NCBI GenBank assembly: GCA_019058245.1
Contig: JAHPZJ010000010.1
Span: forward strand, 1 to 64,000
Length of the DNA stretch: 64,000 nucleotides
Origin: Promethearchaeota archaeon
Lineage (GTDB): Archaea > Asgardarchaeota > Lokiarchaeia > Sigyniarchaeales > SOKP01
Reading direction: 5' to 3'
Shown: piece by piece, positions 1-61,083 of the stretch
Position numbering within the stretch: the stretch's first letter is position 1
Layout: each line of letters starts with the position of its first letter
Notes under the pieces: model-generated
Database searches by the model: none
What the model was told of the DNA's origin: nothing
The model's input: only the letters and a program-made list of their open reading frames with translations
Position numbers and translations under genes: made by a program

Positions 1-2
1 TG

Positions 3-185
3 AGTTTATTTTCTTCAAATTCAAATAGGTTCATAGTATTTAAAGAAAAATATAATTCCCCAGTTTTAAAAAGTGAAATTAATGAGATCATTATTCATCG
101 AAATGAAAAGAAAATATCTATCGATAAATTAAATTCAAATATTATAAAGCATTTAAAAGCTAAAGATAATGCTAAGATTATTTAA
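3..185 (+). CDS. C-terminal fragment of a gene entering from the left edge
   Basis: Frame open from position 3 to TAA at 183-185; converges tail-to-tail with 189..608. Confidence 0.4.
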   Translation, partial: SLFSSNSNRFIVFKEKYNSPVLKSEINEIIIHRNEKKISIDKLNSNIIKHLKAKDNAKII

Positions 186-57742: not shown

Positions 57743-58174
57743 TTAGTTCATTAATCCTCTTTCTTTTAACCATTCTTTTATTTTCTCATGAATTTGATCC
57801 CTAATTTCACGAAATTTATTTAGTTTTTCCTCATCAGTGCTTTCAAAGGTAGTAGGGTCTTCAAATGGCCAAAATAATCGAGTACCTACCCCTGGAATAG
57901 TTGGACATTTTTCTTCTGCTTTAGCGCATACAGTAATCACGACTCAAAAATGTATTTTTCCCAAATACTGCTTTAACTCTTTAGAAGTATGGTTACTTAA
58001 ATCATATCCTATTTCTTCCATCATTTTTATTGTTAAAGGATTAATCCCTTTTGGTTCAAAACCAGCACTATAAACTTCAAAATGATCTCCTGCATATTTC
58101 CTCAGAAATGTTTCTGCTATTTGGCTCCTTGCAGAATTTTTAGTACATAAAAAGATAGCTTTTGTTTTTTTCAT
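57743..58174 (-). pseudogene. arsC: thioredoxin-dependent arsenate reductase with one in-frame TGA
   Basis: [10 protein letters not shown]-loop, SAG..P, VITVC....KCP, W.FEDP, FR.IRD; both ORF halves in one frame, separated by TGA 57944-57946. Confidence 0.8.
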
Positions 58175-58235
58175 AATAATTCTCCTTTTTTGAACTATAT
58201 TTTGGCAGATTTTTAATTGTTATTTATATAAAATA

Positions 58236-58294
58236 TATAGGAGGCAATCCTCTTGTCAATCTTTTACTAACATTTATTAAAAGATCTCATCCAA
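58236..58294 (-). promoter_or_regulatory. eukaryote-type SECIS element 1
   Basis: RNA uuggAUGA-gaucuuuuaau-AAAuguu-aguaaaagauu-GAcaa; 57/59 identical to copy 2. Confidence 0.8.
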
Positions 58295-58781
58295 TACTAT
58301 TTGAATATTCAGATTTAAAGTAGTGGGCAAAAATTTCATTGTCTTTTCCATATTTCTTTCTAATAATGCTTTTAAATTCACCGATATCCAGTCTTTTTTT
58401 CACTTTTTCTCATCAACATCCAGAATCTGGTTGTAAATCTATTACACTATTAGGATATAATACAAAATTTATATCATCCCGAAGCGGCATAAATTTTCTT
58501 AGATTACCATGCTCATCAGGACCATAAGACATTAATCCTATATCATCATAAATTGCATTTTCTTCTGGATTCCATATTAATTGTAAATAATTATGGATAT
58601 AACCATCAAATAAAGGAAATATAGATTCATCTGGATTTTCATAAATAAATTTATCTATGAGAGCTAAAGCTTCAACAAAAGTAGCATTGTCTCTGACTTC
58701 TATAGTAAAATTTTTACCATGTTGTAAACCACTTGACGGAATACTAATTTTAAATGTAATTTTTTTAATTTTAAAAATCAC
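58287..58781 (-). CDS. putative selenoprotein paralog 1: beta-grasp/MoaD-like domain ending G-C-U-U plus in-frame tail
   Basis: ...YPNSVIDLQPDSGC TGA TGA EKVKKRLDIGEFKSIIRKKYGKD...HYF; tail conserved with paralog 2; SECIS downstream. Confidence 0.7.
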
Positions 58782-58977: not shown

Positions 58978-59976
58978 TTACCAATCTTTGTTTTCCCATT
59001 TCTTAAAAGAACCAAATCCTTCAGTTTTTGAAATTACTTCTTTTAAACTTTTATCAAAAAGAATTGAGATATAATAAGAGGAAACTTCTCGTTTAAATGA
59101 TTTATACCGGATAGATTGTGAAAAACTTTCAGCTAAGATCAAAACAACTTTAACTGAATCCTTATTTTCATGAATAAAAGGAAGAATATAATTCCATTTA
59201 TGATAAAATCTATATTCCTGACTAATTTGTTTAGCTAATTCAAAAAAAATGAATTCATCTGAAACATTTGAAATTGTTTGATTTATTAAATCTTGTTTTT
59301 TGGATGAAAAAATAAATTTTTTTTTTAAAGTAAAAGTGATAAATTTATTCGTTAAAATTTTTTCATAAATTAAATAATAAAATGGAAGAAGACCAGGAAT
59401 GTATTTCTGATTTTTAGGAATTTTTAGTTGTATTATAATTCTTGAAAAACCCCTAATCCCAAAATATGCTAGATAAACATAGAGATAAAAGAAAGCAAGA
59501 TTCATAAGTATTTGATAATAAGGTAATGCAAAATAAAATGCTATTAAAACCAGAAGATTTATACAAGAAAAAGTCATCAATAATGGGTTCACTGCTCTAT
59601 CAGCAATTAGTCTATACTCTTTTTTAGAGATCGGATAAAATATTGGTATTTTTGAAGCAGCAAAAAAATCTAGAGAGACATGGATACTGTATCCTATGAA
59701 TCCAGCAAACCAAATCTCAATGAAAAAAACATTTCTAAATATAGATATAAAAAAACTAACAATTCCACTAATTATTAATCCGATAATATAAGAATGAGAA
59801 CCAGCTTTATGAGAAAGAAAGTACATTTTTCTGATTTTTTGGAGCGGTCCTAAGAAAACGTCCAAATCTGGTAAAAATGTCATAATCCACATTAGGATAA
59901 TAGCTTCTGGACTTAACTTGGTTAATGAAAATAGACCTGCTAAAACCCCTATAAACATATGTGTGAAAAAATCCAT
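58978..59976 (-). CDS. membrane-bound metal-dependent hydrolase (YdjM-like)
   Basis: D.FTH, LPDLD, H...SHS, H..LD motifs with TM segments. Confidence 0.85.
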   Translation of the reverse strand: MDFFTHMFIGVLAGLFSLTKLSPEAIILMWIMTFLPDLDVFLGPLQKIRKMYFLSHKAGSHSYIIGLIISGIVSFFISIFRNVFFIEIWFAGFIGYSIHVSLDFFAASKIPIFYPISKKEYRLIADRAVNPLLMTFSCINLLVLIAFYFALPYYQILMNLAFFYLYVYLAYFGIRGFSRIIIQLKIPKNQKYIPGLLPFYYLIYEKILTNKFITFTLKKKFIFSSKKQDLINQTISNVSDEFIFFELAKQISQEYRFYHKWNYILPFIHENKDSVKVVLILAESFSQSIRYKSFKREVSSYYISILFDKSLKEVISKTEGFGSFKKWENKDW

Positions 59977-60030
59977 ATATGTTTTAAAAATAAGACAGCT
60001 TATTTATACAATTCGATTAAAATTTATATT

Positions 60031-60089
60031 TATAGGAAGCAATCCTCTTGTCAATCTTTTACTAACATTTATTAAAAGATTTCATCCAA
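60031..60089 (-). promoter_or_regulatory. eukaryote-type SECIS element 2
   Basis: uuggAUGA-aaucuuuuaau-AAAuguu-aguaaaagauu-GAcaa in the 3' UTR just after TAA 60103. Confidence 0.8.
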
Positions 60090-60102
60090 ATTAATGAATT
60101 TT

Positions 60103-60567
60103 TTATAAATTAAAATAATGGGTGAAACTCTTATGATCTTTTCCATATTTTTTCATAATAATCCTTTTAAATGTCCCATAATCTAATCTCTCTTTCATTA
60201 CATCAGCTCATCAATCAGCATGGACAGCGATAGTTATTTCACTATTAGGATATAGGTTAAAGTTAATGTCTTCATGTAGAGGCATAAATTCTTTTTGAGG
60301 CCCATAAGCGTTTACAGCACAATCCTCATAAATAATATTATCCTCAGCATCCCAAATTAACTGAAGATAACTTTTGATTAAGCCTTTATAAATTGGAAAT
60401 ATGTTATCTTCGATATTTTCATAAACTTTTTTATCTAATATGCTTAATGCATCAACAAGAGTTCCATTATCCTTTATATCCAAATCAAAATCAATTCCAT
60501 TTGACAATTTCCTTTCAGGATCCGGTGCAAATATTGTTATTTTTATTTTCTTAATTTCCAAAATCAC
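60103..60567 (-). CDS. putative selenoprotein paralog 2: beta-grasp/MoaD-like domain ending D-U-U plus in-frame tail
   Basis: ...YPNSEITIAVHAD TGA TGA ADVMKERLDYGTFKRIIMKKYGKD...HYFNL TAA; first TGA aligns with Cys of paralog 1. Confidence 0.7.
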
Positions 60568-60598: not shown

Positions 60599-60889
60599 CT
60601 AAATTAATCCTTTTGCCTTCAGAAGGATTGGTAGTTCTCTCTTGAGATTAAAAGAGGAAGAGATTTTTTTCTTTCCATCTATTATTATGCATTTATTATA
60701 GATATTTAATTGCCTTGCTTCCTCTGAATTTAGATTTTTAGTGTCATAATCAATGTATTTTATATAAGGTGTAAGTTCAACAAATACTCGGTTCATGAAT
60801 TTATCCCATTCACACGCACAGGCATCTAACGGAACATAAATATCAACCTTTAATTTTTCTATAGTTTTATCATTAATTATTTTTATCAC
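60599..60889 (-). CDS. small thioredoxin-fold-like protein with CAC motif
   Basis: beta strand KVDIYVP, then DACACEW and helix; C-terminal IIIDGK. Confidence 0.65.
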   Translation of the reverse strand: MIKIINDKTIEKLKVDIYVPLDACACEWDKFMNRVFVELTPYIKYIDYDTKNLNSEEARQLNIYNKCIIIDGKKKISSSFNLKRELPILLKAKGLI

Positions 60890-60903: not shown

Positions 60904-61083
60904 TTAAACCATTTTATGAAGTCCTTTGTATCTATCGGTACCACAATGAATAAGCTTTGGTTGATAATCTGGATCATCCTTCTTACAATGTGATTCTGAG
61001 TCCTTACAACTCAAACGTGAAATTTGTTCAATGGCTTCACTTAATATTTTTGCAATTTGATTTTCCAATTCTTCCTCATTCAT
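60904..61083 (-). CDS. small Cys/His protein, 59 aa (not in ORF track)
   Basis: MNEEELENQIAKILSEAIEQISRLSCKDSESHCKKDDPDYQPKLIHCGTDRYKGLHKMV; first gene of the minus-strand cluster. Confidence 0.6.
   Translation of the reverse strand: MNEEELENQIAKILSEAIEQISRLSCKDSESHCKKDDPDYQPKLIHCGTDRYKGLHKMV

Follow-up and report, generated by a model that had tools for sequence, protein, structure and literature searches.

A Lokiarchaeia-restricted selenoprotein family with adjacent selenocysteines on a predicted beta-grasp domain and a proposed role in arsenic or soft-metal handling

What kind of protein is encoded by a gene whose reading frame runs through two adjacent TGA codons, and what chemistry do these codons place at the end of its predicted last strand? 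The DNA raising this question, referred to here as the window, is a stretch of 64,000 nucleotides from a Promethearchaeota archaeon (assembly GCA_019058245.1, contig JAHPZJ010000010.1, positions 1 to 64,000 of the forward strand), and the genes concerned are two paralogs on its minus strand (Table 1). Both are almost certainly real selenoprotein genes, belonging to a single Lokiarchaeia-restricted family of ~150-165 aa in which in-frame TGA is read as selenocysteine (Sec, U). The N-terminal domain very probably adopts, according to structure prediction, a beta-grasp fold resembling ubiquitin, MoaD and SAMP, and the Sec-bearing loop at its end may bind trivalent arsenic, As(III), or another soft metal or metalloid.

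Translation of the minus strand with TGA read as U yields a 164-aa product for paralog 1, which carries the motifs ...ITFKISIP...FTIEV..NATFVEALALID...LYPNSVIDLQPDSG-C-U-U-EKVKKRLD... and continues as LYPNSVIDLQPDSG-C-U-U-EKVKKRLDIGEF...HYFKS... to a TGA stop at 58287-58289. Counted from the ATT at 58767-58769, its beta-grasp domain extends to about residue 117 and is followed by Cys-Sec-Sec and a 40-aa helical tail. Paralog 2 reads ...ITIFAP...FDLDI..NGTLVDALSILD...LYPNSEITIAVHAD-U-U-ADVMKERLD..., proceeds as LYPNSEITIAVHAD-U-U-ADVMKERLDYGTF...HYFNL to a TAA stop, and has an additional conserved cysteine in ...YEDCAVNA.... The two proteins share 49% identity (E 4e-53), with similarity unbroken through TGA-TGA into the tail. 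An earlier reading made from the letters without database searches (the sequence-only reading) had described a beta-beta-alpha start, a last strand and a Cys/Sec tail in both paralogs, and the translation reproduces these motifs exactly. Neither paralog was matched in the Pfam (E<=1) and NCBIfam scans, and a PDB sequence-profile search returned no match at E<=10.

Within the window's family, a conserved ATT or ATA codon (ACG in L042 and L043) lies 6-8 nt past a strong GGTGAT Shine-Dalgarno sequence, at 58767-58769 and 60553-60555 in the window and likewise in loci L012, L015, L016, L020, L021, L022, L032, L042 and L043. Because this codon aligns with the ATG of distant members (M-K-x-I), and because in at least seven genes an in-frame ATG/GTG/TTG is not available upstream (intervening stop or different frame), the genes of this family seem to start at AUU/AUA. 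Public assemblies break at the two near-identical copies of the selenocysteine insertion sequence (SECIS; 58256-58273 and 60039-60080), and one low-depth contig connects 58086 to 60034, possibly a strain variant or a mis-join without paralog 1 and ydjM.

A six-frame profile search over 400 genomes of the phylum detected the family in 138 genomes, which all belong to a single class, and in none of the other 242. It is present in 117 of 134 genomes of the window's own family and in 8 of 14 of family f3, and no genome sampled from families f2 and f4-f7 lacks it. Six closed genomes (G135, G138, G143, G187, G188 and G279) are among the carriers, with one copy each. Among the matches listed (~170 genes), each holds two, sometimes three, in-frame TGA codons; two also hold one TAA, and no other stop occurs. 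The 17 distant matches fetched separately follow the same pattern of 2-3 in-frame TGA codons, and an architecture carried in this form by 138 of 400 genomes is seen far beyond chance. The central codon is TGA in 50 of 50 extracted genes; the column before it holds TGT/TGC (41), TGA (8) or GGA (1) and the column after it TGA (42) or GCN (8), so that the leading residue pair is C-U in 41/50, U-U in 8/50 and G-U in 1/50. Long frames in the window's genome end with TGA in 14% and TAA in 72% of cases, and the true stop codons of the family are TAA in 32, TGA in 14 and TAG in 4 of the 50 genes.

The segment beyond the TGA codons behaves as protein. The tail has nucleotide diversities of 0.29/0.19/0.44 at the three codon positions, the body 0.30/0.18/0.50, and the tail evolves as coding sequence, in frame. 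The tail residue R126 is near-invariant and Y150 invariant in the family alignment, and an ATG/GTG/TTG between UU and R126 is lacking in 23 of the 50 genes. Contigs from an independent study carry all TGA codons of the paralogs without a difference. A Cys-Cys form was found neither among 1.84 billion protein representatives (29 matches) nor by profile search among 5.8 billion clusters (91 matches). The matches from both searches are "hypothetical proteins" of metagenome-assembled genomes (MAGs) labelled Lokiarchaeota, Promethearchaeota or Sigynarchaeota, with public records that either end at a TGA or, where full-length from code-4 gene callers, read C-W-W. Two of the representative matches were dismissed as spurious, namely P0029 and the repeat-containing P0011 (1661 aa).

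Both window genes are followed, 3' of their open reading frames (ORFs), by nearly identical SECIS elements of ~60 nt. RNAalifold analysis of 40 members defines an invariant AUGA, a helix of 8-9 bp, an A-rich apical loop, GA and a 3' mini-hairpin, with compensatory double changes in 13 of 13 base pairs. Across the family the element lies 0-25 nt past the stop; the terminating UGA of paralog 1 is itself the UGA of the SECIS AUGA, and ORF and SECIS overlap. A stop codon within the SECIS core is likewise observed in L030, L036, L037, L042, L044 and L048. Type-I, eukaryote-like Asgard SECIS elements with AUGA...GA have been described (PMC4989117; PMC11227280), and the family element is of the same type. 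A covariance model (R1) built from family SECIS only has four more good matches in the window's genome, one of them directly behind HdrA (two U, at the classic positions) and VhuD/FrhD (two U). Because R1 also retrieves this HdrA-VhuD SECIS, the family element is the organism's general SECIS. No Rfam model scores it, a search at Rfam gathering thresholds gave nothing in the window, and ARAGORN detected no tRNA there. Genes for Sec synthesis in the same genome include SepSecS (E 6e-111) and a PSTK-type kinase/KTI12 (E 1.5e-32).

Two further observations concern the same element. In L015:1005-1956 (minus strand), tandem paralogs of the C-U-U and then the U-U-A type lie 19 nt apart with a single SECIS after the second; as with hdrA-frhD, one element seems to suffice for both cistrons and their four UGA codons. 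R1 matches also lie behind three short ORFs of the window's genome (G000 C13:146104-146444; C27:41605-41996; C27:42094-42462), each of 79-91 codons with a hydrophobic stretch and one in-frame TGA (...GG-U-GC..., ...VS-U-GE..., ...MA-U-GT...); these are possibly further uncatalogued small membrane selenoproteins.

The fold was predicted with AlphaFold2 from an alignment (A4) of 47 full-length members, U being shown as C, and the model reached a predicted local distance difference test score (pLDDT) of 89 and a predicted template-modelling score of 0.85; single-sequence prediction gave pLDDT 43 and no usable model. Its strands (E) and helices (H) are E2-8, E19-25, H31-44, a short helix 61-65, E77-84, E90-93, E108-114, H120-123, H129-140 and H148-151, with which the proposed beta-beta-alpha start (E2-8, E19-25, H31-44) and final strand (E108-114) agree. 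The Sec loop (block 111-120) is the least confident ordered part, with pLDDT 73, and the tail helices reach 95-97 and are modelled as packed. The family motif YLQLxWNPExNxIY(D/E)D lies in a 30-residue insertion.

Foldseek matches against the PDB, with weak E-values of 2e-3 to 2e-2, are led exclusively by ubiquitin-like folds: the ubiquitin-like domain of USP7, SAMP1 3po0/4hro (probability 1.00, TM 0.62-0.63 on the target), HVO_2177 and MoaD 1vjk (probability 0.97), with Urm1, ubiquitin and SUMO also matched. VIA-align, independent of Foldseek and run against 48,161 representatives, gave CysO 4n6e_B (Z 7.6, 84 aligned, root-mean-square deviation 3.2) and SAMP1 3po0/4hro (Z 7.6), MoaD proteins at 6.3-7.0 (MoaD-like 1v8c 6.8, 1vjk 6.5, 6jc0 6.3), M. 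acetivorans SAMP1 at 6.2 and Urm1 at 5-6.7, all below Z 8, a level at which VIA-align warns that a score can mirror a common arrangement. The beta-grasp assignment of ThiS/MoaD/Urm1/SAMP type in the sequence-only reading, which a predicted structure of another fold would have refuted, is thus borne out at the level of a predicted model. For the model of 58290-58769, the cobalamin-binding beta-domains of transcobalamin, intrinsic factor and haptocorrin score Z 7.0-7.7, equal to SAMP1; this likeness may merely reflect the common beta-grasp fold, and is notable given the corrinoid protein found in some operons.

In the VIA-align superpositions the C-termini of the carriers fall on model residues 116-120, the region of G117-C118-U119-U120: CysO 2..90 spans 3..119, SAMP1 -1..87 spans 2..119, E. 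coli MoaD 1..81 spans 3..119 and SAMP1 2l52 3..99 spans 1..120. The suggestion that Cys/Sec stands in place of the di-glycine of a sulfur carrier agrees with this placement, and the model supports a domain closest to the sulfur-carrier branch of the beta-grasp fold, with the Sec pair where Gly-Gly sits. The family is nevertheless not a member of ThiS, MoaD, CysO, SAMP or Urm1, because it has neither a free Gly-Gly end nor a match to the family sequence profile. PF02597 matched five canonical GG-ending ThiS/MoaD genes genome-wide and neither Sec paralog, and hhalign of the family against these five proteins (A6) gave a probability of 1%, which is not significant; that non-significant alignment sets L-x-(D/P)-x-(D/S)-x-I...P-x-x-G-G over L-Y-P-N-S-x-I...P-D-S-G-C.

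Alignment of the two paralog types, anchored on both flanks, reveals a register shift around the reactive residues. Compared with the C-U-U type, the VHAD type of paralog 2 has one residue fewer ahead of the pair and one more behind it, so that its U-U aligns with C-U and an Ala takes the place of the last U. Because of this shift, the universal element of the family is a vicinal (Cys/Sec)-Sec pair, located directly after the last strand on the lower-confidence loop and followed by the conserved C-terminal tail with its two helices. Since all distant families carry x-C-U-U, C-U-U is probably ancestral, with U-U-A and U-G-U-U as derived paralog types within the window's family. A cysteine in the motif ...(D/E)DC(A/G)... 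(model position 77, the first residue of strand 77-84) occurs in 9 of 9 U-U-A members and 7 of 41 C-U-U members. All 50 extracted members thereby hold at least three sulfur or selenium donors, as C-U-U, as U-G-U-U, or as U-U plus the strand Cys.

Genomic surroundings were compared over 40 neighbourhoods of ~16 kb, whose ORFs were clustered and annotated, with neighbours counted within 6 kb. In the window's family the recurring operon order is arsR< acr3> (59-aa Cys/His>) (CpaM-HgcA-like> HgcB-like>) CxC> Sec-protein> (arsC>) ydjM> ... HD-domain>. ArsR (NF033788) occurs in 22 of the 40 loci, Acr3 (TIGR00832, 281.9 bits against a cut-off of 282.8) in 18, the CxC protein (no Pfam/NCBIfam family) in ~18, YdjM (PF04307), downstream of the Sec gene, in 12, and the HD-domain protein (PF01966) in 10. 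HgcA/CpaM-like and HgcB-like genes are present in 7-8 loci (NF040863 E 3e-51, NF043040 E 5e-40, NF040864 E 1e-14), all scoring below the equivalog cut-offs and hence termed "-like", and ArsC (TIGR02691) stands downstream of the Sec gene in 5, the window included. The ars link recurs in family f4 (L081, L083, L085). E1-like genes (ThiF/MoeB/UbaA), JAMM, rhodanese, SelD and ArsA are not among the annotated conserved neighbours (+/-6 kb, 40 loci).

No upstream partner recurs more constantly than the CxC gene, which directly precedes the Sec gene in the same orientation in ~15 of the 40 neighbourhoods; its product, ...KLKVDIYVPLDACACEWDKF...TKNLNSEEAR...GLI, resembles the beta1-CxC-alpha1 start of a thioredoxin fold. 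In one genus (L062, L064, L065, L066, L067, L069, L089), two further genes lie between acr3 and the CxC/Sec genes. The first encodes a ~555-aa protein in which a CpaM-type methyltransferase is fused to an HgcA-like corrinoid/membrane domain, and the second an HgcB-like ferredoxin; the pair suggests corrinoid-dependent metal(loid) methylation inside the ars operon. The window's genome has a 60%-identical copy of the fusion elsewhere, at C28:75631-77253. Single linkage had clustered these ~555-aa proteins with the CxC protein, a grouping rejected on alignment, which shows unrelated C-termini.

As to function, three soft ligands form the canonical As(III)/Sb(III) ligand set, as in the As(III) sites of ArsR, ArsD and ArsA. 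Because every extracted member has three soft donors and the gene is internal to ars operons, the Sec loop is proposed to be a binding claw or carrier for As(III) or a similar soft metal(loid), a reading to which we assign roughly even odds (about 0.5) from sequence and gene context. The selenolates would capture As(III), or a comparable thiophilic metal or organometal, through three S/Se donors; the cargo could then be exchanged with the CxC partner and either buffered or handed to the Acr3 pump or the methylation machinery. In such a scheme the beta-grasp body and basic tail would form a docking surface, and the protein would act in a carrier-like manner with its cargo on Sec side chains instead of a C-terminal thiocarboxylate. 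Of the three options raised by the sequence-only reading (a selenium analogue of a sulfur carrier, a redox-active ubiquitin-like protein, or a metal/metalloid chelator with a processed tail), gene context favours the chelator, and its tail processing finds no support: the conserved tail shows the codon pattern of coding sequence, and its helices are modelled as packed with high confidence. In bacterial selenoproteins, HgcA included, vicinal CU motifs have been associated with the handling of heavy metals and organometals (bioRxiv 10.1101/2022.07.06.499078).

Several points weigh against the arsenic claw. The case for metal binding is built solely from gene context and ligand arithmetic. The ars context holds in families f1 and f4, and not in the distant f3 and f5-f7, whose neighbours vary and whose sole repeated neighbour is a CDF cation-efflux gene (L072, L076, L080). 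The ars counts overstate independent support because the synteny is partly inherited. Third-ligand compensation is a hint from one evolutionary event, since the U-U-A members form one paralog group, and position 77 is expected near the end of the last strand and the Sec loop from beta-grasp topology. In the 76%-complete MAG, tRNA-Sec (RF01852) was not recovered, only ordinary tRNAs with UCC and GCU anticodons, nor was SelD, only sub-threshold AIR-synthase relatives. The motif fits a redox role as well, because the redox centre of thioredoxin reductase (GCUG) is a vicinal Cys-Sec pair.

A broader version of the proposal appears unlikely on present evidence. Here the protein would shuttle arsenite, some other thiophilic metal or an organometal between the CxC partner, the methylation module and Acr3; the cargo might also be a methyl or selenium group, traded with an HgcA-like corrinoid enzyme. 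The main rival to the claw, and comparably improbable, is a redox carrier, whose Cys-Sec or Sec-Sec would cycle between selenol and selenenylsulfide or diselenide while feeding ArsC, the CxC thioredoxin-like partner or an HgcAB-like system. The flexible G-C-U-U loop would suit such cycling, as would the thioredoxin-type ArsC directly downstream in five loci and the constant CxC partner, and redox enzymes make up the majority of known selenoproteins (PMC13188914). The Sec gene adjoins ArsC in only 5/40 loci, however, compared with 18-22 for Acr3 and ArsR, and across the 40 loci no flavoprotein or reductase partner is conserved nearby; moreover, two chalcogens suffice for redox cycling, yet a third is kept in 50/50 extracted members by three routes.

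Transport of a small covalent group, either Se/S as perselenide/persulfide or methyl, on the Sec side chains together with the CpaM-HgcA-like corrinoid methylation machinery is doubtful. The fold is closest to CysO, SAMP1, MoaD and Urm1, with Sec at their cargo position; the transcobalamin and intrinsic factor beta-domains score equally (Z 7.2-7.7), and an HgcAB-like corrinoid pair precedes the Sec gene in 7-8 loci. Yet beta-grasp domains all look alike at this Z, the HgcAB-like genes are confined to one genus-level group, and E1-like, rhodanese and SelD genes, like cysteine desulfurase, are not conserved nearby in the 40 loci.

More improbable still is a processed ubiquitin-like modifier, cut near G-C|U-U and then E1-activated and conjugated at its new C-terminus in the manner of SAMP or Urm1. 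Its beta-grasp fold, the MoaD-like P-x-x-G-(G/C) register of the non-significant hhalign alignment and the membrane metal-hydrolase-like YdjM gene that often adjoins would be compatible with it; however, Gly-Gly is lacking, conservation of the tail equals that of the body, its helices are modelled as packed (pLDDT 95-97), no E1 or JAMM gene is among the annotated conserved neighbours, and the genome already has its five canonical GG-ending ThiS/MoaD proteins. Least credible, and rejected, is that the family is not selenoprotein at all, with TGA-TGA as a true double stop before a separate small ORF, a pseudogene remnant or general TGA reassignment: public gene calls do stop at the first TGA and a start codon could lie soon after UU in 27/50 members, but 23/50 have none, the central sites are never TAA/TAG in a genome where TAA makes up 72% of stops, every member keeps the frame, the genes are followed by a covarying SECIS of the kind also present at HdrA-VhuD, and long TGA-free ORFs elsewhere exclude general reassignment.

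Set beside known systems, the family shares with CysO, MoaD, ThiS, SAMP1 and Urm1 the predicted fold and a reactive chalcogen at the exit of the last strand. Those carriers end in a free Gly-Gly, whereas the family has G-C-U-U, A-D-U-U or U-G-U-U followed by ~40 conserved residues (the helical tail); its chemistry would take place on Sec/Cys side chains, not a thiocarboxylate, and it differs further in its 30-residue insertion and the lack of detectable sequence homology. An E1 partner, not seen among the conserved neighbours of the 40 loci, could be encoded elsewhere. ArsD is an As(III) metallochaperone with Cys12/13/18 on a thioredoxin fold that serves the ArsA ATPase. It resembles the family as a small soluble ars-operon protein with three soft ligands, two of them vicinal, but relies on Cys only, in contrast to a predicted beta-grasp fold with proposed Sec ligands alongside an Acr3 pump; neither paralog matched ArsD (PF06953) in the Pfam scan at E<=1. 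The Gly-Cys-Sec-Gly arm of thioredoxin reductase likewise presents G-C-U on a flexible segment able to form a vicinal selenenylsulfide, while the family motif is not at the chain end, includes an extra Sec and is joined to no flavoprotein domain.

Bacterial CU selenoproteins of organometal systems, namely SaoL, SaoB/C, the HgcA N-terminus, MerT-like proteins and MbdU (bioRxiv 10.1101/2022.07.06.499078; PMC13188914), share a vicinal (C/U)-U motif, a metal(loid) gene neighbourhood including HgcAB-like genes, and database genes cut at the TGA ~40-50 residues before the true end. The present family differs in being archaeal, with a eukaryote-like SECIS in the 3'-UTR (untranslated region), an unrelated (beta-grasp) fold, two to three adjacent Sec, no Cys homologues found and no NCBIfam match. 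The catalogued Asgard selenoproteins comprise seven families, SelD, FrhA/VhuU, HdrA, FrhD/VhuD, Prx-like, AhpF-N-like and DsbA-like (PMC4989117; PMC11227280), and have in common with it the lineage and a type-I AUGA...GA SECIS with an A-rich apical loop. The family is not among these seven, and, with neither a Cys form nor a relative found outside Lokiarchaeia, it would escape selenoprotein searches based on homology.

In the window, the co-oriented minus-strand run comprises, in order, the 59-aa Cys/His-rich gene (CH59), CxC, paralog 2, YdjM, paralog 1, ArsC and the CDF-like gene (Table 1). Upstream of this run by ~4 kb, a little past the end of the window, the genome has its own acr3 (C10:64608-65627, minus), which keeps the orientation of the run, and arsR (65863-66252, plus). 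The window ArsC has one in-frame TGA at 57944-57946 (...KIHF-U-VVITVC...), which is not an assembly error because the contigs of the independent study carry it too. Orthologues in two other genomes have Lys at this position, no SECIS lies downstream, and the SECIS of paralog 1 is ~290 nt 5' of the codon on the same strand; the TGA may have arisen by recent nonsense mutation or may serve opportunistically for Sec.

Table 1. Positions of the Sec-protein genes, their SECIS elements and the accompanying genes in the window.
Feature	Position	Strand	Length	Basis or remark
Sec-protein paralog 1, C-U-U type	58290..58781	minus	160-164 aa	translation, family alignment, model, fold searches
Paralog 1 reactive codons	Cys 58416-58418; Sec TGA 58413-58415 and 58410-58412	minus		
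SECIS 1	58230..58298	minus		AUGA core 58287-58290; 9-bp helix, A-rich apical loop, GA, 3' mini-hairpin AGGA-UUGC-UCCU
Sec-protein paralog 2, VHAD-U-U type	60106..60567	minus	150-154 aa	translation, family alignment
Paralog 2 Sec codons	TGA 60211-60213 and 60208-60210	minus		
SECIS 2	60025..60093	minus		nearly identical to SECIS 1; begins 20 nt past the TAA stop
CxC protein (...IYVPLDACAC...)	60599..60889	minus	96 aa	no Pfam/NCBIfam match
Cys/His-rich protein	60904..61083	minus	59 aa	upstream of the CxC gene; same position in 4 loci; no Pfam/NCBIfam match
YdjM-family membrane protein	58978..59976	minus		between the paralogs; PF04307 E 1.9e-16
Thioredoxin-type (pI258-like) arsenate reductase ArsC	57743..58174	minus		PF01451; TIGR02691 E 1.5e-40
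CDF-type cation efflux protein, N-terminal winged helix	56027..57436	minus		PF01545, TIGR01297; last of the co-oriented run

Within the literature searched, this selenoprotein family has not previously been catalogued, being absent from Pfam, NCBIfam and the Asgard/archaeal selenoproteome papers; a May 2026 selenoprotein review lists no further archaeal family, and literature searches found no Asgard selenoprotein tied to arsenic resistance and no selenocysteine beta-grasp sulfur carrier. New points include the register shift that makes the central Sec invariant, third-ligand compensation, distant families without ars context, non-AUG starts, a stop codon within the SECIS core, and TGA codons confirmed by independent contigs. 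The family forms an eighth, lineage-specific addition to the Asgard selenoproteome, represented in public records by truncated "hypothetical proteins", and gene callers should not truncate these genes. It offers a compact natural case of adjacent UGA-UGA (and UGA-GGA-UGA-UGA) decoding, in which the SECIS is eukaryote-like and in some members overlaps with the true stop, and, if the reading holds, one in which a single SECIS efficiently decodes two or three neighbouring UGA codons. Reactive selenols are placed at the business end of a ubiquitin/MoaD scaffold; a carrier with Sec-borne cargo, if confirmed, would represent new chemistry for the beta-grasp carrier scaffold and would be the first obligately selenium-dependent arsenic-handling protein. 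For the Lokiarchaeia, the family ties selenium use to arsenic and metal detoxification.

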